From assembly GCA_043744175.1 (NCBI GenBank), contig JAYTVD010000126.1, positions 1,136 through 65,135 on the forward strand: 64,000 nucleotides of DNA, given 5' to 3'. This document shows positions 1,960-55,678 of the stretch, one piece after another. A model generated the notes under the pieces. It did no database searches and was not told where the DNA came from. It worked only from the letters and a program-made list of their open reading frames with translations. Position 1 is the stretch's first letter. Each line of letters opens with the position of its first letter. The DNA comes from Phyllobacteriaceae bacterium. Its GTDB lineage: Bacteria > Pseudomonadota > Alphaproteobacteria > Rhizobiales > Rhizobiaceae. The position numbers and the translations under genes were made by a program.

Positions 1960-3141
1960 TCAGTGCATCCGGCCAACGGAATTGGGCACTTCATAATGCA
2001 CCTGCGCCGACAGGTTTCGCACCATATGGATGAGTTCCAAACGGCTACCGGAATTGGTTTTGCGCATCAAGGTTTTAACCTGACTCTTCACCGTTTCAAA
2101 AGCGCTGTTGCGAAGGTCAGCAATGTCCTGGTTCGACATGCCCTTGGCAATCAACGTCAGCACATCCTTCTCAGTTTTCGAAAGCGGATAGAAATCGCTG
2201 ATCCTATCAACATCAATGAACACCGGCTTGCTGGTGTCCAGCAGTGTCAGCAGCCGATAACCAACGCCGAGGCGGCCGGTATAAGTCGTCTCCTCAATCG
2301 GGCAAATTTCCATAAACACCGCGCTGCCCGCATCAGCCAGTGGCAGCACAATCGCCTCTTTGCGCGACCTAGCGCCGAACAAGCCGTGCGCATCAGTGGC
2401 GATCAAATCATGGAAGCGGGCCGCCACATCGTCGCGCATAACCTGCAATTTTTTTGTAGGCAAACGACGCAAAACATTGTGCCTGGCAACGATGCGCTCA
2501 AACTCCGGATTGCTGAAAACAATCTCGCCCTCGCCGTTCAAAATCGCAATGCCCTGGTCAGACTTGTTGATGATTTCTTCGAAAATCGCCTGCACCCGAA
2601 ACTGATGCTCCAGCGGACGGCCAAGGCCGATAACCTTGGCGATATGCGGCAGAAAAATGCCCGCCTTCTTGCGCTCTTCAATCGTAATCGGTCCGCGCGT
2701 GATATCAAATTGCAACGCGAAACGATCGACATTCAAAAGGTCTTTATTGAGCAAAGCACCCGCACGGTGCAGCAGGCCGTGCTTGGTCATAAATTGCGTG
2801 TTGGGCTGGTTCAAAACATCCTGAACATTCGGGCGCAACTCGACATCGCTAATCAAATCCACTTGGTCGGATTGTGCAGAAAGCTGCGCAAATCGGGCCT
2901 GATCGCGCAGCTCGTCATCGTTAAACTGCACCATATAGTCCGCCACCACTTGGCGGTCATAATTGGCGCTAAACAGGCGGGAGGCAATCTGCGGCACATT
3001 ATCGTGGTTTCGCACTTCGAAGATGAACGCACCCGCCGCGCCCAAATGTTGCGCCACCCGATAGAGCACTTCCGGCCAGCTTGTAGGGGTCAACGCGGTG
3101 TCGTAAATCCGCGCAATCAAATCAATGTCACTGCTATCCAT
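1960..3141 (-). CDS. LuxR-family transcriptional regulator (PAS-like sensor region plus C-terminal HTH)
   Basis: The C-terminus LSKTEKDVLTLIAKGMSNQDIADLRNSAFETVKSQVKTLMRKTNSGSRLELI is a typical LuxR/GerE HTH. Start taken at the internal ATG (MDSSDIDLIARIYD); the ORF-track start is 3174. Confidence 0.8.
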   Translation of the reverse strand: MDSSDIDLIARIYDTALTPTSWPEVLYRVAQHLGAAGAFIFEVRNHDNVPQIASRLFSANYDRQVVADYMVQFNDDELRDQARFAQLSAQSDQVDLISDVELRPNVQDVLNQPNTQFMTKHGLLHRAGALLNKDLLNVDRFALQFDITRGPITIEERKKAGIFLPHIAKVIGLGRPLEHQFRVQAIFEEIINKSDQGIAILNGEGEIVFSNPEFERIVARHNVLRRLPTKKLQVMRDDVAARFHDLIATDAHGLFGARSRKEAIVLPLADAGSAVFMEICPIEETTYTGRLGVGYRLLTLLDTSKPVFIDVDRISDFYPLSKTEKDVLTLIAKGMSNQDIADLRNSAFETVKSQVKTLMRKTNSGSRLELIHMVRNLSAQVHYEVPNSVGRMH

Positions 3142-3226
3142 TATGCAAGCCGTCCCCCTACGGCGTTTTATCACTCCCGCTATACCTATAGTTCAGAACA
3201 TGAATGTAAACTGAAAGAGCGTCACA

Positions 3227-4099
3227 TTGCATAAATTGGCAACAGTTTTGGCACGTTTTACCCAAGTCTTGGTGGCGCTTGCCATCCTCGCTACCATTTA
3301 TGTTGTCGTTCAAGATTCATCTCCGCTTAAAGTTGTACAACTTGCAGGCATGACGGACAGGATCAACGAGATGTCCCAAACATCCGTGCCGCATAAGCGA
3401 TTGATGGAAAACGACATTTATGCCGCCAACGCGGCGCTGCTGGCCAAGGTGGAAAGTGGCGCAGAGCTTACCATTGATGAGAGCAAGACTTACCGCAGCC
3501 TCATTCAATCCACCCTGTTTCAGAAGCAAAAAATTCTGTCGCTGGTGGATTCATCTCTCACTGTTTTGCCCGACGCGGGCATGGATAAAATGAACAATGT
3601 GGCAGTGCTGGGCATCGCAGGAAATCACGACCACCACGATACCTCCGCCTCAAATAATTTCAGCGCCATGCTGTATGAACTGAACAAAGTCGAGAGCGCC
3701 GGTGGGTTGTTTGCACCGCTCATTCGCATCAAGAACGCGAACGCTGCTTATAAGGATTTGCTCGATATTTTGCCGCACTTAAGCGTGGCTTTGCAATCCA
3801 TCGACCTGCCACTGGCCCCGCCAGCCAACTGGCCGGATACTGATCTTGGAGCCAAATTCAACGCCGTACTGGTGGCGTTCAAACTGGCACAATTTTCACC
3901 CGTCAATTCGCCAGCCTACGTCGCCGCACTTCATGCCGGACTGGATGCCTATGATGCGCTGGTGCTCGCCGTGCAGGCGCGAATTGTTGCCAATACCAAC
4001 AGCTTCGAGCGCCATATTGCAGGCCGCTTTATGTCCACGCAAACGCTGGCACCATCACTGGATATGAGTATCACCATCCGCTTCCCGCGAACAAACTAG
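3227..4099 (+). CDS. hypothetical membrane-anchored protein
   Basis: 290-codon ORF with a TTG start and one N-terminal hydrophobic helix (VLVALAILATIYVVV). No recognisable motifs. Divergent from the LuxR gene. Confidence 0.45.
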   Translation: MHKLATVLARFTQVLVALAILATIYVVVQDSSPLKVVQLAGMTDRINEMSQTSVPHKRLMENDIYAANAALLAKVESGAELTIDESKTYRSLIQSTLFQKQKILSLVDSSLTVLPDAGMDKMNNVAVLGIAGNHDHHDTSASNNFSAMLYELNKVESAGGLFAPLIRIKNANAAYKDLLDILPHLSVALQSIDLPLAPPANWPDTDLGAKFNAVLVAFKLAQFSPVNSPAYVAALHAGLDAYDALVLAVQARIVANTNSFERHIAGRFMSTQTLAPSLDMSITIRFPRTN

Positions 4100-4112
4100 A
4101 CGATCAGCCGTC

Positions 4113-4463
4113 TCACATCTTAAAATCGAAATGCTTGCGAATGGTCTCTTCGATCTTCCACAGACCCTTGAAATCAGCCTCCACCACAAAAGCATCGCCC
4201 GCCTTAATATGAACAGGCGTGCCGCCATCCGGCGTAATCGTCATCTTGCCTTCAATGACATGCACAAACTCATAGGCCGAGTAAGTGGCATGATAAGTGC
4301 CGGGCGTCGCCTCCCAATAGCCGGACATCATCTGGCTATCATCAGACGTATGCAGCACCCACGTCTTCATGGCTGGATTGCCTTCAACAACAACCCAGCC
4401 ATCCAACGTGGCGCTAGATGGTTCAACACTGGTAAGCGGGCCTAATTTGACGATGCTTTGCAT
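4113..4463 (-). CDS. cupin domain protein (DUF861/cupin_3-like)
   Basis: 116 aa. The EFVHVIEGKMTITPDGG...IKAGDAFVV pattern is typical of small single-domain cupins. It is the last gene of the minus-strand catabolic operon. Confidence 0.7.
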   Translation of the reverse strand: MQSIVKLGPLTSVEPSSATLDGWVVVEGNPAMKTWVLHTSDDSQMMSGYWEATPGTYHATYSAYEFVHVIEGKMTITPDGGTPVHIKAGDAFVVEADFKGLWKIEETIRKHFDFKM

Positions 4464-4491
4464 GGGTAGTGCTCCTTTTCAGAAGTTGAGC

Positions 4492-4530
4492 TTATCCAAC
4501 AATCGCTGCCTCAAGTATCTCAAGTACGCC
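4492..4530 (-). repeat. relic copy of the last 12 codons plus stop of the Fe-ADH gene; direct-repeat partner of 5301..5339
   Basis: The reverse complement reads GVLEILEAAIVG-stop. The true ADH end reads GALEILEAAIAG-stop. 34 of 39 nt are identical by hand alignment. Confidence 0.75.
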
Positions 4531-5300
4531 CAAGACGGTCGCTAACCTAGAAGTCATATTTGTTAGTGGCAACTTGATCGGCATATTTTCTCCATTGCTG
4601 ACTTTGTAGCAAAGTTGAATGCAGAATATCTAGCTCCCCGCAGTCCGCTATTCCTTTGAGGCGACTTGCAGAGTGGGAGGCCTCCTCCTTAGTTAGCCAC
4701 GGACTAATTCTGATTTTCTTGATCCAGTCCAAGCTAATATCAAGCGTAATATATTCTTCATCCAATTTGTTGTCGCCGCGAAAAATCCGGAACTCACGTT
4801 CATCGCTAAATGCAACACGTTTTAAGAATGGAAGCCGATGTACTCTGGGTATTGGGTCATTTTTAAGCTGATCCAGTGTTTTGTATCGAATATATCCGCA
4901 TTGAAATTCTTTTTCTTCAGCAAATTTTTTAATGGCCGCCCTATCAAATACAATACAAACGCCAAATTTATCATCTTTTGTGGACTTTTTACCAGCATAT
5001 CGCAGCCAATGGTGGTAGTGTTCTTTTCTCGTTTTGGTACTGCAAAACGCGTAAATTTGCTGCCAATTTTGACTAGTTTTATATTTTTCCATTAGGTATT
5101 TGTCGTTCTTGTCATCCCACCTAGATGTATTCCAAAATTTTATTTTTCTATTATTTAGAATATCTGACAAATCAGAAAAACCACAATATCGACGGAGGAC
5201 CAGCCCAGTATCTGGTTTGTCCTCCGTGTGAAAATTTACAGCATTATCCCTCAAAGTGCCCAAGATCACCTACACTTTATTTTCGTAGTTCAGAGCGCGC
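4531..5300 (-). mobile_element. AT-rich single-gene insertion (mini-island) bounded by the duplicated ADH 3' end
   Basis: Hand counts of 60-nt lines inside (4921-4980, 5101-5160) give about 30% G+C, against about 55% in the adjacent line 5341-5400. It is bounded by a 39-nt imperfect direct repeat. No recombinase gene is present. Confidence 0.55.
4547..5269 (-). CDS. DUF2971-like protein of unknown function
   Basis: 240 aa with a GTG start. The pattern RRYCGFSDLSDILNNRKIKFWNTSRWDDKNDKY ... IYAFCSTK ... HHWLRYAG ... FGVCIVFD ... FSDEREFRIF matches my memory of the DUF2971 signature (fnDP-E, cFS, mW-Y, Gvci-f, E-EwR). Confidence 0.6.
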   Translation of the reverse strand: MILGTLRDNAVNFHTEDKPDTGLVLRRYCGFSDLSDILNNRKIKFWNTSRWDDKNDKYLMEKYKTSQNWQQIYAFCSTKTRKEHYHHWLRYAGKKSTKDDKFGVCIVFDRAAIKKFAEEKEFQCGYIRYKTLDQLKNDPIPRVHRLPFLKRVAFSDEREFRIFRGDNKLDEEYITLDISLDWIKKIRISPWLTKEEASHSASRLKGIADCGELDILHSTLLQSQQWRKYADQVATNKYDF

Positions 5301-6467
5301 TTACCCCGCAATCGCCGCCTCAAGTATCTCAAGTGCGCCCTTTTTCGTCAGTTTTACAGGGTTCCCACCGGCTGTCGGGTCAACCACGGCCATGTCCGAA
5401 ATCAGCGTCTTGCGCTTTTTGTCCGGTGCGAAATCTTTGACTAACCCGCCCAGTGTATGCGGCACTTTCAAATCTTTGCGCAGCTTGATGACCGCTTTGC
5501 GGAAGCCGTCGAAGCCGCCTTTGATATTCAAATAACGGGCGGCAGCTTCGATGCGTGGCTCAATGGCGGCGCGGTTGAAATCCAGCACGTAGGGCATGAA
5601 CACGGCATTCGTCATGCCGTGGTGCGTATGGTACAGCGAGCCGATCGGGTGCGATAGCGAATGGATGGCGCCGAGGCCTTTTTGAAATGCAGTCGCGCCC
5701 ATTGCGGCAGCGGACATCATGTGGGCGCGGGCATCCAAATCCTTGCCATTGGCGAAAGCCTTAGGCAGATTTTCAAACACAAGGCGCATACCTTCCAGCG
5801 CGATACCATCGGCCATCGGATGATAGCCCGGTGCGCAATAGGCTTCGAGGCAATGCGCCAGCGCATCCATGCCCGTACCGACCGTGATAAACGGCGGCAT
5901 ACCGACGGAAAGCGCGGGATCGGCAATCACGATCACCGGCATCATTTTCGGATGGAAAATGACTTTCTTAGTGTGCGTTTCTTCATTCGTGATAACGCCG
6001 GCGCGGCCCACTTCCGAGCCCGTGCCTGAAGTTGTCGGCACGGCGATAACCGGCAAAATGCCGTTCGGGTCGGCGCGGGTCCACCAATCACCCACGTCTT
6101 CAAAATCCCACATCGGGCGCGTCTGGCCTGCCATAAAGGCGATGACCTTGCCGACATCCAGCGCCGAACCGCCGCCAAACGCAATCACGCCATCATGCTT
6201 GCCCGCGCGCACCACTTTGATGCCCGCTTCAACATTGGCCGAAACCGGATTGGGCTGCACATCATGAAACAGGCCGTATTTCACGCCATTGTCCGACAGC
6301 ACTTTTAAAGCATCTGCCACGATCTGCATCTTGGCCAAACCGGGGTCCGTCACGAACAGCGGGTTCTTGATGCCCGATGAAAGGCAGGCTTCCGCCAATT
6401 CAGAAATGCGGCCCGCGCCAAAGCGCACAGTGGTTGGGTAATTCCATTTGGAGACGAGTTTGGACAT
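5301..6467 (-). CDS. iron-containing (group III) alcohol dehydrogenase
   Basis: 388 aa. Contains GGGSALDVGK, PTTSGTGSEV and the His-rich metal site (DALAHCLE, HSLSHPIG, HHGMTNA). Confidence 0.9.
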   Translation of the reverse strand: MSKLVSKWNYPTTVRFGAGRISELAEACLSSGIKNPLFVTDPGLAKMQIVADALKVLSDNGVKYGLFHDVQPNPVSANVEAGIKVVRAGKHDGVIAFGGGSALDVGKVIAFMAGQTRPMWDFEDVGDWWTRADPNGILPVIAVPTTSGTGSEVGRAGVITNEETHTKKVIFHPKMMPVIVIADPALSVGMPPFITVGTGMDALAHCLEAYCAPGYHPMADGIALEGMRLVFENLPKAFANGKDLDARAHMMSAAAMGATAFQKGLGAIHSLSHPIGSLYHTHHGMTNAVFMPYVLDFNRAAIEPRIEAAARYLNIKGGFDGFRKAVIKLRKDLKVPHTLGGLVKDFAPDKKRKTLISDMAVVDPTAGGNPVKLTKKGALEILEAAIAG

Positions 6468-6476
6468 GGTTCTCTT

Positions 6477-6776
6477 CTATCGTTTCATTTCAACTTCAAT
6501 AAAGCTCATCGGCACATCGGCGGCATTGATGACATTATGCTCCACGCCTGCGGGACGCGAATAGGCCGCGCCCGCCGACACAAAGCGGCTGCTAACGCCG
6601 TGGGCATCCACAAGGCGCACGTTCATATCCGTGATGGGCACCACAATATAGGCCATGCCATGGGTGTGATGCCCCGTCTCCGCGCCCGGCTCAAAATCCC
6701 AGCGCGTCACCTTGGTGCGTTCGTCATCAACGAGCACCGTAGGGATAGCAGGAACCGAGGCGCGGAAGTTGGACAT
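6477..6776 (-). CDS. small cupin domain protein
   Basis: 99 aa. GHHTHG ... GVEHNVIN is a two-motif cupin signature. Its start lies 1 nt after the upstream ALDH stop. Confidence 0.7.
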   Translation of the reverse strand: MSNFRASVPAIPTVLVDDERTKVTRWDFEPGAETGHHTHGMAYIVVPITDMNVRLVDAHGVSSRFVSAGAAYSRPAGVEHNVINAADVPMSFIEVEMKR

Positions 6777-6777
6777 G

Positions 6778-8163
6778 TTATTTTATGACCTTCTGATGAT
6801 AAGATTTCGGACGGGTCAGCCCCTGAATGCCGAGCACCGAGAGCGAAGCGCCCTTGCCGGTATCTTTCACGCCGGTCCACACCAACGCGGGATCAAGATA
6901 ATCGCAGCGGTTGGTGAAGACGGTTCCCGTTTCAACACGGTCACCGATCATCGCGGCACGGTCCAAATCTTGGCTCCAGATGGAAGCCGTCAGACCGTAA
7001 GGGCTGTCGTTCATCAGCGCGATGGCTTCCTCATCATTGCGCACCTTCATAATACCAACGATGGGACCAAAACTTTCCTCGCGCATCACGCTCATCTGAT
7101 GGTTCACACCAGTGAGAATCTCCGGCGCGAGATAAGGCGATCCGGCCACATCCTTATCAACCTTCATGTTGATATGAGCGGTAGCGCCGCCGCGCAAGGC
7201 CTCAGCCTTTTGCTCACGGATAAAGTCCGCAAAGCGCGCCTGGGCCATCGGTCCCATGGTGGTGTCTTGATCCAGCGGATTGCCGACTTTGTAAGTTTTG
7301 GTCAGCTTCACTGCGCCTTCGACAAATTCGTCATAGACTTTTTCATGCACATAAATGCGCTCAATACCGCAGCAGCATTGGCCGGAGTTATAGAAGGCAC
7401 CATCCACCAACGTTTCAATCGCAGCGTCCACATTGGCATCCGGCAGCACGTAGGCAGGATCCTTGCCGCCAAGCTCCAAGCCCAGCGTCATAAATGTACC
7501 CGCTGCTGCCCGCTCAATGGCGCGACCGCCAGCAACGGAACCTGTAAAGTTGCAATGGTCGATTTGGCCGGATGCCAGCAGCGCTTCTGTCTGGCCGTGG
7601 TTCATAACAATGTTCTGGAACAAGCCCTTCGGCAGGCCCGCCATTTCGAACGCCTTGGCAAAGCGCTCGCCAACCAGCAGCGTTTGCGCTGCATGTTTGA
7701 GGATAACCGAATTGCCTGCCATCAGCGCCGGAATAATCGTGTTGATGGTGGTGAGGTATGGATAGTTCCACGGCGCAATCACCAGCACGGTGCCCAGCGG
7801 CACATGCTTGATATAGCGGCGGAAACTGTCGGACTTTTCGATCACCATCGGCTTCAATGCCTTTTTGGCATTGGCAACCACGAAGCGTGTGCGCTGTTCC
7901 ACGCCGCCCTTTTCGCCGCCGTAGCGCACGGGACGGCCCATCTGCCATGCAATTTCCGTAGTGATCTCATCATTCATTGACATAAGCGCATCAAGGAATT
8001 TGAGGCACAGCTTACCGCGCCGCTCAAAGGTATTGAGCGCCCATTTAGCCTGCGCCGCCTTGGATGTAGCCAGCACCTTCGCCAGCGCCTTATCCGTAAT
8101 CACCGGACGCTCCGCATAAACAGAGCCGTCAATTGGCGAGATGAGTTTTATTGTGTCGGCCAT
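6778..8163 (-). CDS. NAD(P)-dependent aldehyde dehydrogenase
   Basis: 461 aa with ALDH family motifs ELGGKDP and NSGQCCCGIERIYV (catalytic Cys region). Confidence 0.9.
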   Translation of the reverse strand: MADTIKLISPIDGSVYAERPVITDKALAKVLATSKAAQAKWALNTFERRGKLCLKFLDALMSMNDEITTEIAWQMGRPVRYGGEKGGVEQRTRFVVANAKKALKPMVIEKSDSFRRYIKHVPLGTVLVIAPWNYPYLTTINTIIPALMAGNSVILKHAAQTLLVGERFAKAFEMAGLPKGLFQNIVMNHGQTEALLASGQIDHCNFTGSVAGGRAIERAAAGTFMTLGLELGGKDPAYVLPDANVDAAIETLVDGAFYNSGQCCCGIERIYVHEKVYDEFVEGAVKLTKTYKVGNPLDQDTTMGPMAQARFADFIREQKAEALRGGATAHINMKVDKDVAGSPYLAPEILTGVNHQMSVMREESFGPIVGIMKVRNDEEAIALMNDSPYGLTASIWSQDLDRAAMIGDRVETGTVFTNRCDYLDPALVWTGVKDTGKGASLSVLGIQGLTRPKSYHQKVIK

Positions 8164-8195: not shown

Positions 8196-9575
8196 TTAGT
8201 AGCGTTCAAAACCGCGATGCAGTTCCCAGTCGGTAATGCGGCGGTCATACTCAAATTGTTCCCAGCGCGCGGTGTGCAAATAATGCTCAATGGCAACATC
8301 GCCAAAGGCATCGCGCATCATTTTGCTTTTTTCCAGGAAGGTTGTCGCCTCGCGCAGGGTCTTAGGGATTTCAGTCAGCTTTTCGCCAGCATACGCATCG
8401 CCCTCAAATTGCTTGTCGAGTTTCAGCCCCTCATCAATGCCAGCCAGCCCCGCCGCAATCAGCGCTGCGAAAGCTAAATATGGGTTCAAATCCGCGCCGC
8501 CGATACGGCATTCAATGCGGATCGCTTTCGTGCCCGCACCGCAAAGGCGGAAGCCCGCCGTGCGGTTGTCATCCGACCAGATGATCTTGGTCGGCGCAAA
8601 TGTGCCCACCATAAAGCGCTTGTATGAGTTAATATAAGGCGCGAGGAAGTACGTAAAATCCTGCGCATATTTCATCTGTCCGGCCACCCACGAGCGCATC
8701 AGCGGCGTCATGCCGAACTCTTGGGTCTTATCCAAAAACAGCGATTGCTTGCCGTCTTCAGTCCATAGCGAATTGTGAATATGGCTGGAATTACCCGCAT
8801 GGTTATAATTATATTTCGCCATAAACGTGATGGACTTGCCCATCAAATCAGCAATTTCCTTGCAGCCGTTTTTCATGATGACATGGTTATCCGCCATATC
8901 CAGCGCTTCGGCGTAGCGCACGTTGATCTCTTCTTGACCCGGCCCCCACTCGCCCTTGGAATTTTCAATCGGAATGCCCGCGCCGTTCAATCCGTTGCGG
9001 ATCGCGCGCATATAAGGCTCTTCTTTGGTGGTGATGCCAATGTTGTAATCGCCGATGTAGGGCGAGGCGGTATTCAGGCCCGACCAATGCTTGGCGCGCG
9101 CCGTATCATGCGTCTCATTGAAGAGGAAAAATTCAAGTTCGGAGGCGAAGTAAGCCATCCAGCCGCGCTCTTTCAAACGGGCAACCTGCTTGCGCAAAAT
9201 CGCGCGCGGGCTGTGAGGCAAATCTTCGTGGTGGTGATGATCTTGCACATCGGCCAGCACCAGCGCGGTCTTTTCCAACCACGGAACACGGCGCAGCGTG
9301 CTCATGTCAATCTTCATCACAAAGTCGCCATAGCCCTTCGACCACGAGGCGGCCTGATAGCCGGGCACAGGCTCCATATCAATGTCATTGGCCAGCAGAT
9401 AGTTGCAGCCATGGGTCTCGTCATGAGCGCTCTCAACAAAGAACGAGGCCAAAAATCGCTTGCCAATGAGGCGGCCCTGCATGTCCACGATACATGCCAA
9501 AACGGTATCAATCTCACCGCTGGCAACATCTTGGCTCAATTGTTCAAAGCTCAAATTTCCGGCCATTTGTTCCAC
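8196..9575 (-). CDS. glutamine synthetase-family ligase (gamma-glutamyl-amine synthetase-like, PuuA/GlnT type)
   Basis: 459 aa with GS catalytic-domain motifs (ELEFFLF, KGEWGPGQEEIN, NSSHIHNSLW, DNRTAGFR). The start could instead be the ATG at 9566. Confidence 0.85.
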   Translation of the reverse strand: MEQMAGNLSFEQLSQDVASGEIDTVLACIVDMQGRLIGKRFLASFFVESAHDETHGCNYLLANDIDMEPVPGYQAASWSKGYGDFVMKIDMSTLRRVPWLEKTALVLADVQDHHHHEDLPHSPRAILRKQVARLKERGWMAYFASELEFFLFNETHDTARAKHWSGLNTASPYIGDYNIGITTKEEPYMRAIRNGLNGAGIPIENSKGEWGPGQEEINVRYAEALDMADNHVIMKNGCKEIADLMGKSITFMAKYNYNHAGNSSHIHNSLWTEDGKQSLFLDKTQEFGMTPLMRSWVAGQMKYAQDFTYFLAPYINSYKRFMVGTFAPTKIIWSDDNRTAGFRLCGAGTKAIRIECRIGGADLNPYLAFAALIAAGLAGIDEGLKLDKQFEGDAYAGEKLTEIPKTLREATTFLEKSKMMRDAFGDVAIEHYLHTARWEQFEYDRRITDWELHRGFERY

Positions 9576-9649: not shown

Positions 9650-11200
9650 TTAAGCCTGACCCACCGCACGTTCAGCAGCGGCAATCGCAGCCTTGCGCTT
9701 GGCAATCGCAGCCTCACCAATTGGCGGGCCTTGGAAACGACGGTTTTCAAATGCGAACCACACAACAAATGCGAGCACAATGAAGCCTGCCACCACATAA
9801 AGCACACGCTCATTGGGTGCTGCGACGGCAATGAACAGAATGACTGCCATGCCGACAACTGATAAAACAGTTACCAGTTTATAGAGGCCAGCGGACATTG
9901 CCCACGGGCCGGGATTTGGCCACTTGGCTGTTCCATAGGCGAACAGACCTGCAATCAGCGGTAGGGTGAACGAAAGGAACAAGAACACAAGCGTTGAGTT
10001 CACAACGATGACGTAGATCGAAGTTTCGCCAACCTTGATGGACATCGCCAGCAACACATAAAGAATGCTGAGTACTGTTGCCGTCCAGATCGCATTTACC
10101 GGCGTGCGGTATTTTGGCGACACAGACGACAGCGCCTTTGAAATGCCGGGAACACCATCATCGCGTGAGAACGCAAAGAGCATACGGCTGGCAGATGTTA
10201 CAGTCGCAAGACCGCACAAAAGCTGGGTAATCAAAATGCCGAGATACATAACATTTTTAATAGCTGCAGGCAGAATTGCATCCATCGTCAGATAGAACAT
10301 GTTGAAACCCTGACCCGCCGCGACAGACAGATCTGGAATGGCCAGCGTAATGGCGCAAATCATGACCCAGCCGATCAAGGATGACCAGAACACCGATGTC
10401 ACAATACCGCGTGGTACAGAAGTCGCTGCACCAACGGTTTCTTCCGCCGTGTGTGCAGACGCATCATAACCAGTGATGGTGTAAACCGGCAGCAACAGGC
10501 ACAACAGGAACAAATAGCCCATATTGTCTGACTGCGGGAACACGTTGCCACCAGCAGCGCCCGAGTAGTTTGTGAATGTCCACAAGCGCGAGATGTCGAT
10601 AGCAGGCGCGAAGTAGAGGCAGGCCACAACAAGCAGCGCCGTCGTTGCCAAAATAATGTAGCCAGACACGTCGGTCAACATCGTCGTGACCTTAATGCCG
10701 AGATGGTTGAACAAGGCTTGAATGGCAGTGATAACGGCAACGAATATCACAACCTGCGTATCAGTGCCCGTAAAGCCAAACATCGAGCCGAATGTGCCAG
10801 CGAAGAAATAGGCCGTACCAATGTTGATGGCGCCAAGAACAGTAATGAGCCCCAAAAGATTGAGCCATGCGGTTAGCCAGCCGGTGAAGCGGCCACCAAG
10901 AATGGAGCCCCAGTGATAAAGCCCGCCCGCTGTCGGGAAGGCGGAAGCAATCTGCGCCATTGCCAGCGCAAACATGCCCGAAAGCACGCAGCCAACGAGC
11001 CAGCCAATGCCCGCGCCCGCGCCGCCAACCGACGAAATCGCCTGCGCAAACGAATTGATACCACCTGACAAAATGCAGATGATTGAAAATGAAATCGCGA
11101 AGTTTGAAAACTTCGACATGCTTCGAGATAGTTCCTGGGCATAGCCCATGCCATGCAGGATTTTTATATCCTCGTCATGGTCGTGTAATTTATCAGCCAT
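9650..11200 (-). CDS. APC-family amino acid/amine permease
   Basis: About 12 hydrophobic segments. Start set at the ATG (MADKLHDHDED) preceded by GGAGGG; the ORF-track start 11290 would overlap the upstream gene. Confidence 0.85.
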   Translation of the reverse strand: MADKLHDHDEDIKILHGMGYAQELSRSMSKFSNFAISFSIICILSGGINSFAQAISSVGGAGAGIGWLVGCVLSGMFALAMAQIASAFPTAGGLYHWGSILGGRFTGWLTAWLNLLGLITVLGAINIGTAYFFAGTFGSMFGFTGTDTQVVIFVAVITAIQALFNHLGIKVTTMLTDVSGYIILATTALLVVACLYFAPAIDISRLWTFTNYSGAAGGNVFPQSDNMGYLFLLCLLLPVYTITGYDASAHTAEETVGAATSVPRGIVTSVFWSSLIGWVMICAITLAIPDLSVAAGQGFNMFYLTMDAILPAAIKNVMYLGILITQLLCGLATVTSASRMLFAFSRDDGVPGISKALSSVSPKYRTPVNAIWTATVLSILYVLLAMSIKVGETSIYVIVVNSTLVFLFLSFTLPLIAGLFAYGTAKWPNPGPWAMSAGLYKLVTVLSVVGMAVILFIAVAAPNERVLYVVAGFIVLAFVVWFAFENRRFQGPPIGEAAIAKRKAAIAAAERAVGQA

Positions 11201-11258
11201 TTCTAGTTCCCTCCGAACGTTGACGTTCACCCTTTTAGTTTCTTTTTGCGTTGACCTA

Positions 11259-12071
11259 TCAAGCCTGAGCTCGAAACGCCCCCGCCGCATTCAACTCCTT
11301 GAATCCCGCGTCGGCAACCTTTGAAAGCAGATTGCCCCATTTTATTTGCTCTTGAGGAGTTGTAATTTCATCATTCCTGACTTCGATCATAACCGCAGGT
11401 AGCCCGCGAGAACGTGCGTGCCGTGTCAGCGTGAAATAGACGCGATCTTCAGGAGAATAAGGCTCGTTGACGCCAACAGTGTATCCCGTCTGAGCGCGAA
11501 TTTGCATCACCATCGAAAGCGCCCATTGCGACGCTTCATCATGGATGATCCCAATTTCCCAAGGCCGCGAAACGCCGCGATAGGTGGGGTTAAAACTATG
11601 CACCGCGATAAAGCCCGGCTGCTGGCCTTTGGCAATTTTCGCCTCAGTTACGCCCTCAATTGCATCATGAAACGGATCATAAAACCGCCTGATACGCCCT
11701 GCCCGCTGCACATCCGTCAAACCAATATTGCCGAGAATATCCGTGCTCTCGCTTTTCTGTGCAATCAAATCATGCGCATCCAACGGACGGTTACAATCAA
11801 TCAACAGCCGCGAAGCGTTCGAGCGCACCAGCGGCGCATCGAGATTTTTGGACATCACTTGCGAAACGGCGAGAGCGCCGGGATCCCACGCAATATGACG
11901 CTGAAGATCACTATGGCTGAGGCCAAGTCCGTTAAATTCATCCGGCATAAAATTGGAAGCATGGTCACAGACAATCACAAACACGCCCTGCCCGTCACGG
12001 TTATCAACCGAAACGGCGGCGTCAAAATGCGGAACATCCCGCTTTGCAGCGCTTGCTATTCCCAATTTCAT
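11259..12071 (-). CDS. N-formylglutamate amidohydrolase-family hydrolase
   Basis: 270 aa. VIVCDHASNFMP and HSF..NPTYRG motifs are typical of the FGase family. Confidence 0.75.
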   Translation of the reverse strand: MKLGIASAAKRDVPHFDAAVSVDNRDGQGVFVIVCDHASNFMPDEFNGLGLSHSDLQRHIAWDPGALAVSQVMSKNLDAPLVRSNASRLLIDCNRPLDAHDLIAQKSESTDILGNIGLTDVQRAGRIRRFYDPFHDAIEGVTEAKIAKGQQPGFIAVHSFNPTYRGVSRPWEIGIIHDEASQWALSMVMQIRAQTGYTVGVNEPYSPEDRVYFTLTRHARSRGLPAVMIEVRNDEITTPQEQIKWGNLLSKVADAGFKELNAAGAFRAQA

Positions 12072-13049: not shown

Positions 13050-13075
13050 CTCCCCCTTTTAATTAGCTTCGCCCC

Positions 13076-13193
13076 AAAAATTCGTGATGATGAGTCAAAT
13101 AGCGTGGATGTTCGAGAACCGGAGCGGAGCGTACTTAAGTACGTGAGCACCGGAAGCACAGAACACCCGCGCTAGTTGGCCATCAGCGCGGAT
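13076..13193. repeat. 118-bp long-palindrome intergenic repeat, copy A
   Basis: Shares an identical 44-nt core, GAGAACCGGAGCGGAGCGTACTTAAGTACGTGAGCACCGGAAGC, with copy B, and the flanks align along the whole length. The left and right halves are imperfect reverse complements. It lies between convergent gene ends. Confidence 0.85.
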
Positions 13194-13195
13194 AT

Positions 13196-14623
13196 TCAAG
13201 AGTGTTTCACCATCACGTGTCTGACGGCGGTGTAATCCTCCAACGCATAGAGCGACATATCCTTGCCGTAGCCGGACTGCTTGAAGCCGCCATGCGGCAT
13301 TTCATTGACCAGCATGAAATGCGTATTGACCCAAGTGCAGCCATAGCGAAGCTGGGCAGCAGCAGACATGCCACGTGTCACATCCTTGGTCCAGACTGAT
13401 GATGCCAGCCCGTAGTCGCTGTCGTTCGCCCACGCAATCGGGTCGTCTTTTTCCGTAAAGCGCGTGATGGAAACCACAGGGCCAAACACTTCGCGGCGCA
13501 CGATTTCATCGGATTGCAATGCGCCAGCTACGACAGTCGGCTCATAGTAGAACCCGCCGCCGCCAACCTGCTTGCCGCCCGTTGCGATGGAAATGTGCTT
13601 CATTTCAGAAGCCCGCTCAACGAACGAAGACACGCGGTCGCGCTGACGGCCGGAGATGAGCGGTCCGATTTCGTTGGTCGCATCGTCTTCCTGATTGAAG
13701 GCAATGGTGGAGACGGCTGATGACAAATCCGCCACCAATCTATCATAGATTTTCGCGCCCGCATAAATGCGGCAAGCGGCAGTACAGTCCTGCCCCGCAT
13801 TGTAAAAACCGAACGCACGAAGGCCCGAAACCACCTCGTCCAAATCCGCATCATCATAGACGATAACTGGCGCTTTACCGCCCAGTTCCAAGTGCGTGCG
13901 CTTGACGCTTTTGGCTGCCGCTTCCAGCACTTTTTTGCCCGTCGCCACATCGCCGGTGATGGAAATCATATTGATACCGGGATGGTTGATAAGCGTGTTG
14001 CCAACACTATGCCCGCGACCCAGCACGACATTGACCACGCCTTCAGGCAAAATATCAGCCATCAGCCGCGCCATCTTTAATGCCGTCAGCGGTGTCTGTT
14101 CGGATGGTTTGAACACCACGGTGTTGCCGCCGGCAATGGCAGGTGCCAGCTTCCAAGCCATCATCATCAGCGGATAATTCCACGGCGCGATGGAGCCAAC
14201 AATGCCGATTGGGTCGCGGCGGATCATCGAGGTGTGGCCAGCCAAATATTCACCTGCCGCCTGCCCCGGCATACAGCGCACTGCGCCCGCAAAGAAACGA
14301 TAGCAATCGACAATGGCCGGAATTTCATCATTCAAAACCGCGTTAATCGGCTTACCGCAATTCAGCGCTTCCAGCTTCGCCAGCTCTTCCGCATTCGCCT
14401 CAATGGCATCGGCAATCTTCAGCAAGTAGCCGGAGCGCTGCCCCGGCGTGGTGCGCGACCATGTTGTGAACGCCCGCTCCGCCGCCTTCACCGCCGCATT
14501 GATTTGCGCTTCAGACGCTTCCGGCAATTCCAATATCAGCTTGCCCGTGCGCGGGTTCAGCACCTGCTCGGCCGTCTCTGTTCCGGCTTCAAACTTCGAG
14601 CCGATCAGCATGTGAGTGTCCAT
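13196..14623 (-). CDS. patD: gamma-aminobutyraldehyde dehydrogenase-like aldehyde dehydrogenase (PatD/YdcW family)
   Basis: N-terminus [44 protein letters not shown] ... LEALNCGKP closely parallels E. coli PatD as I remember it. Start set at the ATG preceded by GGAGGA. It is the last gene of a ydcSTUV-like operon. Confidence 0.8.
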
Positions 14624-17395: not shown

Positions 17396-17435
17396 ATATT
17401 CCTCAATGGCAGCGGCAACTTAGCGCCGCCGCTGC

Positions 17436-17553
17436 AAAAATTCGGGATGCTGAGTCAAATAGTGTGGTCGTTTGAGAACCGGAGCGGAGCGTACTTAAGT
17501 ACGTGAGCACCGGAAGCGCAAAACGACCGCGCTAGTTGGCCAGCAGCACGGAT
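17436..17553. repeat. 118-bp long-palindrome repeat, copy B (intercistronic)
   Basis: Same family as 13076..13193. It fills the gap between the binding-protein stop (17555) and the ATPase start (17395). Confidence 0.85.
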
Positions 17554-17554
17554 T

Positions 17555-18730
17555 TTATCTCCCGCCGATGACGCCGATATAGTCTGATACCCACCGATAA
17601 TACGGCACACAGGCATCGCCTTGCGTAGCGCATTTGGTCTGCGGGGTTTTCCAGAATTTGATCTTGTCAAAATTATCGCCGCCATTGGCAGCGCATCCGG
17701 CATCGGTCAATAATTCATTACCCTTGCAAGCGGCAGGAACGGACGGCACGGTGCCAAACCAAGCTGAAACATCACCCTGAACCTTAGCATTGAGCGAATG
17801 CTCCATCCACATGTAGGCGCAGTTTGGATGCTCGGCTTCCGCATGAAGCATGGTTGTGTCGGCCCAGCCCGTCACGCCCTCTTCAGGGAATGTGGAGGCA
17901 ACAGGCGTCTTGGCCATCGCTTCCTTGTCATACTGCAATGTGTTCACTTGGAACGGCCAAGAGCCGGAAGCCACGACGCCCTCGTTCTTGAAATCATCCA
18001 CTTGAATCATCGCATCATGCCAATAGCGCGATGTGAGCGTGCGCTGCGTACGTAGAATTTCCAGTGCCGCTTTATATTGATCCTCGTTCAACTCGTAAGG
18101 ATCTTTAATGCCAAGCTCAGGCTTGTGGAACATCAGATAATTGGCCGCATCGGCAATATAAATCGGACCGTCATAGGCCTGCACGCGGCCCTCGTTGGTC
18201 TTGCCATCCGGCAAATCCATCTTCTCAAAAACCACGTTCCAGCTCTTCGGCGCTTCTTTGAACGTGTTGGTGTTATACATCAAAACATTCGCGCCCCAGA
18301 CATAGGGCGTGCCGTAATGCTTGCCATCCACCGTGTGCCACGGCGCATTTTGCAGACGTGGATCAATCGTGCTCCAAGATGGAATAAGCGCCGTGTTGAT
18401 CTCCTGAACGCGCTTGCCGGCCACCAGTCGCAGCGACGCATCGCCGGAAGCCGTGACCAAGTCAAACCCGCCCTCATTCATCAGCGCGACCATTTCATCG
18501 GAGGTCGCGGCGGTCTTGACGGACACTTTGCACGATGTCGCTTTTTCAAAATCGGTGACCCAGTCATAGGCCTTGTCAGTTTCGCCGCGCTCAATGTATC
18601 CGGCCCAAGCCACGATATTCACCGCGCCCTCGCCCTTGCCGAGCTCTTTCAACATTTCAGCCGATGATGTTTGAACGCCAAAGCTCATCACCGAAACCAG
18701 CGCTGTGCATGTGTGCAATAATTTTTTCAT
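17555..18730 (-). CDS. periplasmic polyamine-type substrate-binding protein (PotD/PotF/YdcS-like)
   Basis: Start set at the ATG (MKKLLHTCTALVSVMSFGVQTSSA signal peptide) preceded by GGGAGAA. The longer ORF-track version (to 19159) runs through the intergenic region into the LysR gene. Confidence 0.85.
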   Translation of the reverse strand: MKKLLHTCTALVSVMSFGVQTSSAEMLKELGKGEGAVNIVAWAGYIERGETDKAYDWVTDFEKATSCKVSVKTAATSDEMVALMNEGGFDLVTASGDASLRLVAGKRVQEINTALIPSWSTIDPRLQNAPWHTVDGKHYGTPYVWGANVLMYNTNTFKEAPKSWNVVFEKMDLPDGKTNEGRVQAYDGPIYIADAANYLMFHKPELGIKDPYELNEDQYKAALEILRTQRTLTSRYWHDAMIQVDDFKNEGVVASGSWPFQVNTLQYDKEAMAKTPVASTFPEEGVTGWADTTMLHAEAEHPNCAYMWMEHSLNAKVQGDVSAWFGTVPSVPAACKGNELLTDAGCAANGGDNFDKIKFWKTPQTKCATQGDACVPYYRWVSDYIGVIGGR

Positions 18731-38561: not shown

Positions 38562-39500
38562 TTACTGAGCTGCGGCCTTAATTTTTGAATTGCAGATGCT
38601 GTAGAAACCGCCGCCCTTCTGGATCCAACGCAAACCGTTCAGCGTGCCTGCATCCTTGTTGGCATGGTAAGCATCAACACATGTACGCATACGGGCCTTA
38701 CCGGCGGTCAGGTCAGCATATTGGGCATTCACAGCCTTAGGCATTTTCACGCCCTTTGGTACGGAAACATTGGCAACAACAGCTGGTTCAACTGGATCTG
38801 GAGCATCCTTGGCAACATCTGCATCATCCGGCGCATCCTGCGTATCGGTGGTGCACTTTGTGCTACGGAAATCATTCCACTTCATGCCGTTCAGCGTGTT
38901 CGCAGCTTTGGCAGATTGATAAAGCGCGCTGCATTCCTTGACAGTCAAATGACCAACAGCATCAGTTGGCGCCACGGCAGCCATAGTGGCAGCTGGCTTC
39001 TTCGCCTTGGTTGGAGCAGGCGCGTCTACTGGTTCAGCAGCAGCGGTATCACCGGAACACATCGCCTTGCGATAGTCATTCCACTTCATGCCGTTGAGTG
39101 TTCCAGCAGCCTTATCGGCCTGATACTTGGCAGAACAATCCTTGGCAGAAAGCTTAACGCCAGCTGGCTCAGCGGCTGGTGCCACAACCGCAGCGGCGGC
39201 TTCTTTCTTGGTCTTCTTCGCTGGCTTTTCAACAACAACTGGAGCAGGTTCCGCAGCCGCAGCGGCTTCCTTCTTAGTCTTCTTTGCTGGCTTTTCAGCT
39301 ACAGGCTCGGCAGCAGCAGCTTCCGCACCGCAATTTGCCTTGCGGAAATCCTGCCACTTCATGCCGTTTAGTGTGTCTTTGTCCTTAGCGGTTTGAAACA
39401 ACACGCTACATTCTTTCGTTGACAACGCATGTGCCGGCATTGCGAACAACATCGCGCCGGTAACTGAGGCAAAAGCCACGCCCATAAACTTCTTCATCAT
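38562..39500 (-). CDS. secreted repeat protein with four Cys-bracketed modules (PsiF-repeat-like, tentative)
   Basis: Signal peptide MMKKFMGVAFASVTGAMLFAMPAHA. Four copies of C-x12-LNG-(M/L)-(K/R)-W-x(6-12)-C, with the C-to-C spacing longer in the fourth copy. They are separated by Ala/Lys linkers, including the duplicated EKPAKKTKKEAAAA. ATGATG start after GGAGAG. Confidence 0.7.
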   Translation of the reverse strand: MMKKFMGVAFASVTGAMLFAMPAHALSTKECSVLFQTAKDKDTLNGMKWQDFRKANCGAEAAAAEPVAEKPAKKTKKEAAAAAEPAPVVVEKPAKKTKKEAAAAVVAPAAEPAGVKLSAKDCSAKYQADKAAGTLNGMKWNDYRKAMCSGDTAAAEPVDAPAPTKAKKPAATMAAVAPTDAVGHLTVKECSALYQSAKAANTLNGMKWNDFRSTKCTTDTQDAPDDADVAKDAPDPVEPAVVANVSVPKGVKMPKAVNAQYADLTAGKARMRTCVDAYHANKDAGTLNGLRWIQKGGGFYSICNSKIKAAAQ

Positions 39501-40759: not shown

Positions 40760-40872
40760 CAAAATTCGCTTTGGTGAGTCAAATAGAGTGAGTTTCGAGA
40801 ACCGGAGCGGAGCGTACATTTGGTACGTGAGCACCGGAAGCGCAGAAAGTTGCTCTAGTTGGCCGCCAAAGT
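40760..40872. repeat. long-palindrome repeat, copy C
   Basis: Same arms as copies A and B (GAGAACCGGAGCGGAGCGTAC ... GTACGTGAGCACCGGAAGC), but the apical loop is ATTTG instead of TTAA. It lies between the convergent DMT gene and serA. Confidence 0.8.
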
Positions 40873-54361: not shown

Positions 54362-55678
54362 TCATTGATTTAAGTCGGCTAGATCAAAGCTGACTTCCAC
54401 TTCAGACCAGGTATCATATTTATCCGCCGGCAAATCATAAGGCTGGCATTTCATAACCGCACGGCGCAGCGCTTCGGCAGCAGCAACTTCCGCACCTGAT
54501 CCCCCTCCATTGGAGGTGATTTTAGCACTGCCATCCACCTCACCGGCTTGGTTCAAATTAAACTTCACCTTCACGACGGACGAACCCACATCGTTAATGC
54601 CGGGGGTGGAGCTAAAGCAGCTCTGAATTTTCCCGCGCAGCGCGTCCATTTCGCTCAGTGAAAGCTTAGACCCGCCAGTGGTTTTCTTACCGCCAAGTGC
54701 GGCCTGATCGGTTGATCTCTTTGCTCCACCCGTCGCGCCCGTATCCTTATTGAGAAGCGCCTTGGCGATATCATCGTTCAGCTTGTTTTCTTCAGCTTTT
54801 GCTGTAGCGGCGGCCTTCTTGGCCTCAGCCTTCGCCAATTTTGCAGCAGCGGCTTTCTCAGCCTTGGCTTCCGCATCAGCTGCAGCTTTGGCTTCAGCAG
54901 CGGCAGCATCTTTTGCCGCTTTTGCCTCTGCCGCAGCGGAGTCTTTTGCCGCTTTCGCGTCTTCCGCAGCCTTGGCTTCTTCGGCAGCTTTTGCGTCCGC
55001 CGCGGCCTTGGCTTCTGCCTTTGCATCGGCCTTAGCCTTATCCGCCTCAGCTTTGGCGGCCTTATCAGCGGCAGCTTTTTCTTCCAGCGCCTTGGTATCA
55101 ACTTCAGCCTTCAGCAATGCTTCCGCTTCTAACTTAGCCGCGGCTTCCGCTTTAGCATCAGCCTTTGCAGCCTCAGCCTTCGCAGCAGCGTCAGCGGCTT
55201 TCGCTTCTGCAGCCTTTGCAGCCTTGGCCTCAGCCGCCTTCGCTTCCTCAGCTTTTGCATCCGCCTTGGCCGCTGCCTGTTCTTTGGCGATAGCATCGGC
55301 AACCGGATCAACCTTCGGTTCTTCCGGCTTGGTCTCTTCAGGCTTAACTACTGGCTTATCCTGCGGCTTTGGTGGCGCGGCTGTTTCCACCGGCTTTGGT
55401 TTATCGGCAGGTTTTGGCGGTGTGGGCAAATCTGTTTCATTATCGCCAACATTCTTGGCGTCCGGCTGCGTTTGAGGTTTGGTCGTCGGTTTCGGCGCGG
55501 ACTTTTCGGCCTTTGGTGCTTTTTGATCGCCCTGCTGAATTTGGGTTTCTTCCGTAATCATCGTCACGGCCACAGTTTCCCCGCCCGTTTCGAGCTTTTT
55601 GGTCGAAGACAGTGACACCAAACCCAGAATTAACAGGATGATGTGGATAATCGTGGATGAGGCGACCGGACCCTTCAT
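54362..55678 (-). CDS. tolA: TolA-like protein (TM anchor, long Ala/Lys/Glu helical domain, TonB-C-like domain)
   Basis: N-terminal TM helix IIHIILLILGLVSL. A low-complexity stretch of about 230 aa is rich in KAEAKAAADAKAAEE. Positioned between tolR and tolB. Confidence 0.8.
   Translation of the reverse strand: MKGPVASSTIIHIILLILGLVSLSSTKKLETGGETVAVTMITEETQIQQGDQKAPKAEKSAPKPTTKPQTQPDAKNVGDNETDLPTPPKPADKPKPVETAAPPKPQDKPVVKPEETKPEEPKVDPVADAIAKEQAAAKADAKAEEAKAAEAKAAKAAEAKAADAAAKAEAAKADAKAEAAAKLEAEALLKAEVDTKALEEKAAADKAAKAEADKAKADAKAEAKAAADAKAAEEAKAAEDAKAAKDSAAAEAKAAKDAAAAEAKAAADAEAKAEKAAAAKLAKAEAKKAAATAKAEENKLNDDIAKALLNKDTGATGGAKRSTDQAALGGKKTTGGSKLSLSEMDALRGKIQSCFSSTPGINDVGSSVVKVKFNLNQAGEVDGSAKITSNGGGSGAEVAAAEALRRAVMKCQPYDLPADKYDTWSEVEVSFDLADLNQ

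Follow-up and report, generated by a model that had tools for sequence, protein, structure and literature searches.

A foreign DUF2971/PDC-S31 gene with a predicted DarT-like fold, a candidate single-gene defence system, inserted at the alcohol dehydrogenase–cupin junction of an alphaproteobacterial catabolic operon

DUF2971 is predicted to be a family of ADP-ribosyltransferases (ARTs) that resembles DarT and AbiGi and has an ExE motif and a tyrosine that is strictly conserved (PMC12522546). One of its members, Aristaios, is a DUF2971 protein from a Lactococcus plasmid that has a predicted ART fold, constitutes a single-gene system of the abortive-infection (Abi) kind (PMC11381338, PMC13064643) and blocks phage transcription or protein production (PMC11381338, PMC13064643, PMC12967558). 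As to the vehicles on which such genes might travel, cis-mobilizable elements (CIMEs) keep attL and attR and have lost their integration and transfer genes (PMC6323972), while integrons are reported to stockpile streamlined or compact defence genes (bioRxiv 10.1101/2024.07.02.601686). Here we describe a 756-nt, AT-rich segment that carries a single open reading frame (ORF) of the DUF2971/PDC-S31 family and lies between an Fe-dependent alcohol dehydrogenase gene (Fe-ADH, hereafter ADH) and a cupin_3 gene in a 64,000-nt stretch of contig JAYTVD010000126.1, referred to as the window. The inserted protein shares with Aristaios the DUF2971 domain, the predicted ADP-ribosyltransferase fold and the single-gene architecture, whereas Aristaios has 316 amino acids (aa), is plasmid-borne and comes from the Firmicutes (Lactococcus). 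The literature already contains the gene family, the fold prediction and one distant relative that has been validated, and no new class of system is proposed here.

The segment is a one-off horizontal insertion at the ADH/cupin_3 junction of an amine/aldehyde catabolic operon, which lies on the minus strand in a Phyllobacteriaceae/Rhizobiaceae-like alphaproteobacterium. A scan of the ADH protein against 185,579 species genomes yielded 80 loci from Phyllobacteriaceae/Rhizobiaceae-type bacteria, and in three of these relatives (L002, L003 and L004) the site is empty, the ADH stop and the cupin_3 start being separated by 32–34 nt with no gene between them. In the blastn alignment with L003, two collinear blocks are obtained (window 12440-5288 to L003 2-7182, and window 4531-4120 to L003 7128-7545), and only the 756 nt at window 4532-5287 have no counterpart in the empty-site genomes. 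The host genes on both sides are well conserved, the ADH protein showing 90-92% aa identity to those of L001-L005 and the Cupin_3 protein being 88-93% identical to the product of the gene directly after ADH in L002-L004.

The composition of the segment differs clearly from that of its surroundings. The 753 nt between the flanking repeats described below have a GC content of 39.3%, which falls to 35% in the lowest 400-nt window, against a mean of 53.6% (standard deviation 3.6) over the 64 kb, and the insert is the sole patch below 44% GC. The GC content at third codon positions is 0.38 in the inserted ORF, compared to 0.59-0.68 in the neighbouring genes. The ORF occupies 96% of the insert, with about 15 nt to spare on each side.

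The insert is bounded by a direct repeat of 42 nt (4490-4531 and 5299-5340), the two copies of which are identical at 37 of 42 positions and have 18 nt as their longest exact stretch in common. A 25-nt core of this repeat occurs exactly twice in the 64 kb and not once in 100 shuffles, and the flanking-repeat score is 29.5, the maximum of the null distribution being 12.5. The duplication continues for about 11-13 nt beyond the ADH stop codon, through CTGAA. On the empty-site genomes the collinear blastn blocks overlap (55 nt in L003, 41 nt in L002), and the duplicated target is therefore 53-55 nt long overall; it comprises the final 12 codons of ADH with their stop and the next ~11-13 nt. The copy attached to the ADH gene is host-like, with 40 of 42 positions identical to the ADH ends of L002 and L003, while the other copy is a non-coding relic that precedes cupin_3. 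The ORF begins 31 nt after the ADH stop, and the cupin ATG lies 28 nt after the relic stop. Both the full ADH reading frame and the ribosome-binding site of the cupin gene survived the insertion, the latter being an AAGGAG sequence 8 nt upstream of the ATG that is carried within the relic copy (Table 1).

It should be mentioned here that the last 42 nt of the ADH gene (5299-5340) are 95-98% identical to L002 and L003, while the genes are ~82% identical overall. This places the ADH 3' end in the top ~4% of 42-nt windows in the comparison with L002 and L003, but not in that with L001 or L004, and could be a weak hint of nucleotide-level constraint at the ADH–cupin junction.

We have also considered the possibility that a foreign fragment was chimerically joined to the operon through the shared repeat during assembly. 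In its favour, the source seems to be a single contig of ~66 kb and the close relatives are mostly metagenome-assembled genomes, but the two copies differ at 5 of 42 positions and share an exact run of 18 nt at most, which is too short and too divergent for a k-mer mis-join. In addition, host-specific sequence is found in the right order at both junctions, the relic holds the cupin's own upstream region, and a foreign DUF2971 gene would not carry the ADH end of this lineage as its flanks. An assembly artefact is thus hardly credible.

A preliminary description of the locus, made from the letters alone, had proposed an insertion flanked by a 39-nt duplication, and the empty ADH–cupin junctions of the three relatives confirm that the insertion is genuine. 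The duplication is real, with the 34 of 39 identical positions that had been claimed, and so are the spacings of 31 and 28 nt, to which the 32–34 nt of the empty sites may be compared, and the presence of a single 240-aa ORF in operon orientation between the repeats. The AT-rich, foreign composition is borne out as well, whereas the estimate of ~30% G+C was too low. Far from all sharing the gene at native base composition, the relatives include empty sites and the inserted gene has a foreign GC content; nor does the repeat appear, in pattern scans of viral and metagenome sequences, as a widespread sequence unrelated to the ADH end.

Table 1. Position of the insert, the duplicated target and the operon genes in the window.
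Feature	Position	Strand	Remarks
Amino-acid permease	9650-11290	minus	farthest upstream operon-strand gene listed
Glutamine-synthetase-like gene	8196-9575	minus	upstream of aldehyde dehydrogenase
Aldehyde dehydrogenase	6778-8163	minus	upstream operon gene
cupin_2	6477-6776	minus	upstream operon gene, adjoining Fe-ADH
Fe-dependent alcohol dehydrogenase, 388 aa, intact	5301..6467	minus	Pfam Fe-ADH 1.1e-50, with ADH_Fe_C
Duplicated target, left host-like copy	5288..5340	minus	last 12 ADH codons, stop and ~11 nt intergenic, ending CTGAAC
Foreign inserted segment, 756 nt	4532..5287	minus	gap between blastn blocks; sole low-GC patch
Inserted ORF, 240 aa, DUF2971/PDC-S31 family	4547..5269	minus	GTG start at 5269
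9-bp stem	5192..5227	minus	within the N-terminal extension of the ORF
Duplicated target, right relic copy (GVLEILEAAIVG-stop and ~13 nt)	4477..4531	minus	non-coding; blastn block with L003 begins at 4531
Cupin_3 (EutQ-like) gene, 116 aa	4113..4463	minus	Pfam Cupin_3 1e-23; downstream operon gene

The comparison of the two repeat copies provides information about the age of the event. Of all the ADH ends compared, the relic most resembles that of the window itself, with 37/42 identical positions, the 80 relatives reaching 35/42 at best. Its five differences in the 42-nt core are all of the GC-to-AT type, and the non-coding tail has drifted in both copies. Because the third-codon-position identity between the ADH of the window and those of the closest relatives is only 0.54-0.61, the insertion is younger than the split from these relatives and yet not recent; that is, it is moderately old. 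When neutral ORFs were simulated at the 12% divergence of the relic, taken as a measure of the time elapsed, with substitutions alone, only 1.6% of them remained open. That neutral ORFs rarely stay open, together with the retention of all 15 residues that are invariant in the family (see below), argues for purifying selection, by which the ORF appears to have been maintained since the insertion.

We now turn to the inserted protein. The database gene call comprises 238 aa, which is consistent with a TTG start at 5263; as the N-terminal ~25 residues are common to the closest homologue, translation starts at the GTG at 5269 or at one of the TTG codons that closely follow. The Pfam DUF2971 profile (PF11185) matches residues 88-162 over its full 89 positions with 18.2 bits (E = 0.0065), below the gathering score of 22 bits. 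Among 47 aligned relatives, 45 match PF11185, the best with E = 2.7e-8, and several database relatives have a precomputed PF11185 match or are named 'DUF2971 domain-containing protein'. The DUF2971 assignment of the preliminary description therefore holds for the family, while for this protein itself it stays under the threshold. The PADLOC model PDLC04993 of PDC-S31 is matched with E = 1.3e-8 and 32.4 bits, judged without a curated cut-off and over the C-terminal part of the profile only (residues 143-224). Each of the 47 aligned relatives has a PDC-S31 match as well, the best at 1e-19. The protein is like PDC-S31 in being the product of a stand-alone single gene, some family members lying in defence islands, and unlike it in matching only the C-terminal part of the profile and in belonging to a divergent sub-branch.

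The nearest relative among 5.8 billion proteins is 45% identical, the others being 28-39% identical and mostly ~207 aa long. In an exhaustive profile search, 587 cluster representatives scored E <= 1e-30 and 4,337 scored E <= 1e-3; nearly all are stand-alone proteins of ~210 aa. Judged by these matches, the inserted protein is a member of a stand-alone ~210-aa DUF2971 subfamily, within a divergent sub-branch. No match of the ORF was found in PHROGs or NCBIfam, none by tblastn of the protein against plasmid and phage collections, and none at E <= 10 in a profile search against PDB sequences. The antisense ORFs of the insert have no family matches, and Rfam gave no family match either.

The alignment contains 15 invariant residues, all of which are found in the inserted protein: W51, D53, N55, C76, E83, H86, H87, Y129, L146, P147, F148, K150, E157, E159 and P190. 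The invariant motifs are WDDKND, E-T-Y-H-H-W, Y129, LPFLKR and D-E157-R-E159-F-R, and R27, in the first strand, is nearly invariant. The invariance of Y129, E157 and E159 agrees with the published tyrosine and ExE motif of DUF2971, as read from the alignment.

The AlphaFold2 model of the protein has a mean local confidence (pLDDT) of 85.5 and a predicted template-modelling score (pTM) of 0.80. In a Foldseek search of the PDB, the top six matches are all DarT (7omv, 7omw, 7omx, 7omy, 7yk3), with probabilities of 0.66-0.99 and with modest template-modelling scores (TM-scores) of 0.38-0.49. Pierisin-1 appears lower in the same list, and a viral structure library was best matched by uncharacterised proteins of jumbo phages (E ~2e-6). 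DarT, the toxin of the DarTG toxin-antitoxin defence system, which ADP-ribosylates DNA, is thus the only consistent match among solved structures; it is of similar size (~200-220 aa), and DUF2971 has been reported to be similar to it in sequence and to possess the ExE catalytic motif (PMC12522546). The modelled ART fold agrees with the published predictions for DUF2971 (PMC12522546, PMC11381338), and the assignment of the inserted protein as a predicted DarT-like, ART-fold member of the DUF2971/PDC-S31 family is well supported.

The gene context was examined at nine homologue loci. In Methylocapsa, one homologue lies between a CBASS operon (SMODS, HORMA, AAA, DUF6602) and GmrSD. That locus (L084:2648-8584; Methylocapsa sp. 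D3K7, CP123229.1) is a dense defence island, in which GmrSD is followed by ArdC, a UvrD-like helicase and a large methyltransferase. Another homologue adjoins AbiH and a SEFIR/TIR protein on a conjugative element, and a third, in the vicinity of HicB, is surrounded by small uncharacterised genes, a site-specific recombinase (PF10136) being encoded ~2.4 kb downstream of it. The GC content of the gene is lower than that of its flanks in seven of the nine cases, and that of the Sphingobium cloacae homologue is fully host-like. The closest homologue, P0002 (45% identity; L081:4170-5000), forms a single-gene islet of 46% GC in a genome of ~64% GC, wedged between a hypothetical gene and a convergent acetyltransferase, with a leader of its own of ~100 nt and no flanking repeat.

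A further homologue, P0042 in L094 (JGI 3300009870, Ga0131092_10000712; 2846-8095), is an integron gene cassette of ~787 nt (6967-7753). The integrase gene of this chromosomal integron is split by an IS21 (TIGR02249 positions 1-74 and 218-313), GTTAGGC cores number 6 against 0.7 expected, and the attC sites fold with z = -11.9 and -6.4. These signals show that the PDC-S31/DUF2971 subfamily also circulates as integron cassettes.

Such a cassette could in principle have been placed at a secondary site in the operon by an integron integrase acting in trans. Besides the genuine cassette in L094, the insert is itself cassette-sized (756 nt, in the range of ~0.75-0.8 kb), and it consists of one promoterless ORF with a very short leader. 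It differs from a cassette, however, in that no attC, which would be a structured, imperfect palindrome with RYYYAAC and GTTRRRY cores, is present at its 3' end, only 15 nt separating the stop codon from the relic and the junctions folding with z = +0.64 and -1.15, in that the GTTRRRY core is found at neither boundary, and in that no intI was found in the first 12 kb of the window (positions 1-12 kb). Integrase-driven cassette insertion leaves the target unduplicated, whereas the insert has a 53-55-bp target duplication. With attC and core sites missing and the junctions unstructured, integron insertion is largely refuted, and we regard it as very improbable.

No duplication of a host gene 3' end comparable to that in the window was found in the nine homologue loci, the sole flanking repeat above the null being the pair of integron attC ends in L094. 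The duplication therefore belongs to this event and not to the family.

We tentatively prefer a route in which the target was duplicated in situ. The foreign DNA would either have been joined to the ends of a widely staggered break or have entered as a copy through template switching; the target would thereby have been duplicated in place, and the unconstrained copy would then have decayed through GC-to-AT drift. This reading is suggested by the relic being closest to the window's own ADH end, by its changes being all of one type and by the left copy being host-like throughout, as well as by the site being otherwise unused in the 80 relatives and by the lack of an attP-like copy in the viral and metagenome scans described below. 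A mosaic of host and element sequence is not seen in the two copies, one of which is host-like and the other divergent over its whole length.

Two other sources of the flanking copies were considered and rejected. A foreign donor ADH end is not a suitable source of the relic, as no ADH end among the 80 relatives matches it better than the window's own. Insertion sequences and transposons are characterized by terminal inverted repeats, a transposase and a short target duplication (2-15 bp); here no inverted repeat joins the ends of the insert, the sole ORF is the DUF2971 protein and no transposase is present, and the duplication is 53-55 bp.

An alternative that we consider possible but rather doubtful is that the insert is a CIME-like mini-island. 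If the ADH 3' end served as attB and recombined, in a site-specific or Campbell-type manner, with a homologous sequence of ~55 nt on a circular element, the two repeats would be attL and attR, and an integrase that acted in trans or was later lost would have left one beneficial gene behind. Tyrosine-recombinase islands are classically recognised by direct repeats of 40-60 nt at a gene's 3' end, and the sequence TCTGAA, common to the distal end of both copies, is a possible crossover region. The unusual conservation of the last 42 nt of ADH relative to L002 and L003 would fit an attachment site, and one family member does move with a tyrosine recombinase, namely as an integron cassette. As in the definition of CIMEs, the repeats on the two sides of the insert are direct and consist of a protein-coding gene's 3' end, the target gene being completed by one of them; the insert carries accessory cargo, and no integrase was found nearby.

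On the other hand, the insert is far smaller than CIMEs, holding one ORF and no remnants of other genes, and neither a cognate integrative and conjugative element or integrase nor another occupant of the site was found in the 80 relatives. In none of these does the ADH end recur within the ~6 kb that were fetched, and no mobile genes follow ADH in L001, L003 and L006, where transporters and metabolic enzymes are found instead. No recombinase is encoded in the first 12 kb of the window, the genes there being metabolic, transport and regulatory, and the window contains no tRNA genes. To search for an attP, we used a degenerate 25-nt core pattern that matches both window copies as well as L002-L005; it has no match in 2.9 million viral contigs and only two in the metagenome collection, both unrelated AT-rich chance hits. 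The absence of a hybrid host/element pattern in the two copies and of a comparable duplication at any of the nine homologue loci also speaks against this alternative. The preliminary description had interpreted the locus as site-specific integration that regenerates its target, with no recombinase present. The latter point agrees with the present results for the first 12 kb of the window. The former is not supported as it was stated: the relic resembles host sequence that was duplicated and has decayed, and neither a second ADH-end copy, a mobile gene nor an attP-like copy was found in the relatives and scans just mentioned.

A more speculative proposal is that the insert exemplifies an undescribed route for ORF-sized defence genes, in which single-gene cassettes that lack both a recombinase and an attC would be delivered to the 3' ends of host genes. 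A trans-acting integrase might, by analogy with the repeat-length duplications made by integrases of the Cas1 type, cut the two strands ~55 nt apart, and the promoterless cargo would land in an expressed operon with both neighbouring genes preserved. We regard this reading as a long shot.

Concerning expression, no promoter- or terminator-like signal of note beyond chance was found between ADH, the ORF and the cupin gene, and transcription of the gene through read-through from the operon promoter is plausible. Within the N-terminal extension of the ORF a stem of 9 perfect base pairs (ACGGAGGAC/GTCCTCCGT) encloses a loop of 18 nt and is followed by a T-run 11 nt later. It is not a canonical terminator and was not called by the terminator scan, and the fold of the 131 nt at 5170-5300 is not significant (z = -1.5).

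As to function, we infer by analogy that the gene may provide single-gene abortive-infection defence through NAD+-dependent ADP-ribosylation, expressed from the operon promoter. The protein would remain inactive until a phage infects the cell; with NAD+ it would then ADP-ribosylate either a nucleic acid or a protein, and so block the replication or the gene expression of the phage. Aristaios has been reported to be a defence of this single-gene abortive-infection kind. The preliminary description had guessed at a defence role, and at the level of the family this guess is supported by the PDC-S31 matches, the defence-island and integron contexts of the homologues, the DarT-like fold and the published work on DUF2971 and Aristaios. 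For the inserted gene itself, defence is a candidate role.

It is also conceivable, although unlikely, that the gene is not an immune gene at all and is instead a selfish toxin or addiction module, a secreted ART effector, or a domesticated regulatory ART tied to the amine/aldehyde operon. The solitary position of many homologues among housekeeping genes (five of nine) and the host-like GC content of the Sphingobium cloacae homologue, which suggests long residence, would fit such roles, and so would the orientation of the gene, which is co-oriented and probably co-transcribed with the catabolic operon. In a survey of Legionella, ~18% of DUF2971 proteins were predicted to be effectors (PMC12522546). 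An addiction module, however, would call for an antitoxin partner, and none was found; the gene is missing from the relatives that share the operon and thus does not belong to the pathway; and the family matches defence-candidate profiles and is found in the company of CBASS, GmrSD, AbiH, TIR and integron cassettes.

Taken as a whole, we give an even chance to the explanation that a foreign insertion with in-situ duplication of its target has placed a promoterless, DarT-like single-gene abortive-infection defence in the operon. A number of observations weigh against it. The 53-55-bp duplication far exceeds, to our knowledge, those of known bacterial transposition, and we know of no documented break-repair case with a duplication of this size that could be cited. 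If the differences in the relic predate the insertion, that is, if the relic originates from an attP, both the dating and the selection argument would be void. With regard to the protein, the DUF2971 score is below the gathering score, the TM-scores to DarT are modest (0.41-0.49, E ~4e-3), and none of the 47 members has a DarT/DUF4433 sequence match at E <= 10. Unlike DarTG, the locus has no adjacent DarG macrodomain antitoxin and no other antitoxin or macrodomain partner nearby, the neighbours being ADH and cupin_3. The kinship to Aristaios is distant and comes solely through the shared Pfam family, and PDC-S31 is a candidate only, no published test of it having been found in a literature search. 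Finally, five of the nine homologues are found in plain housekeeping surroundings, and read-through expression is deduced solely from the absence of signals.

Some features of the surrounding DNA may be added. The top NCBIfam match of the ADH is 4-hydroxybutyrate dehydrogenase, under the cut-off. A terminator-like hairpin follows cupin_3 at 4113-4098, and the synteny with the empty-site relatives stops right after this gene; the next ORF of the window (3227-4099, plus strand, 290 aa) has no Pfam family. At 59537-59572, 36 nt are 75% identical to the ADH part at 6169-6204, which suggests a second Fe-ADH paralogue in the window. Any such paralogue would be devoid of the duplicated sequence, as the repeat core occurs in the window only twice, both times at the insert locus. 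A dispersed repeat of ~127 nt is found at 13070-13196 and 17430-17556 (88% identity), with a partial third copy at 40761-40847; it is also present near the operon in the relative L004 (L004:3421-3526) and may resemble repetitive extragenic palindromic (REP) sequences or miniature inverted-repeat transposable elements (MITEs). The regions 38600-39420 and 54795-55470 contain imperfect tandem-like repeats with units of 35-87 nt and 60-76% identity, which are probably repetitive coding sequence.

The locus represents an unusually clean and datable case in which a housekeeping operon has incorporated a defence candidate of a single gene; the empty sites and the decayed duplicate of the target, the latter serving as an internal clock, together argue for a gene that has been kept by selection. 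For the family, the integron-cassette member indicates that its genes move by several routes. The inserted gene may serve as a test case for whether the PADLOC candidate PDC-S31 is a real defence system and, with its product being a compact, partner-less and predicted DarT-like ADP-ribosyltransferase, for how a toxin of this kind is controlled without an antitoxin.

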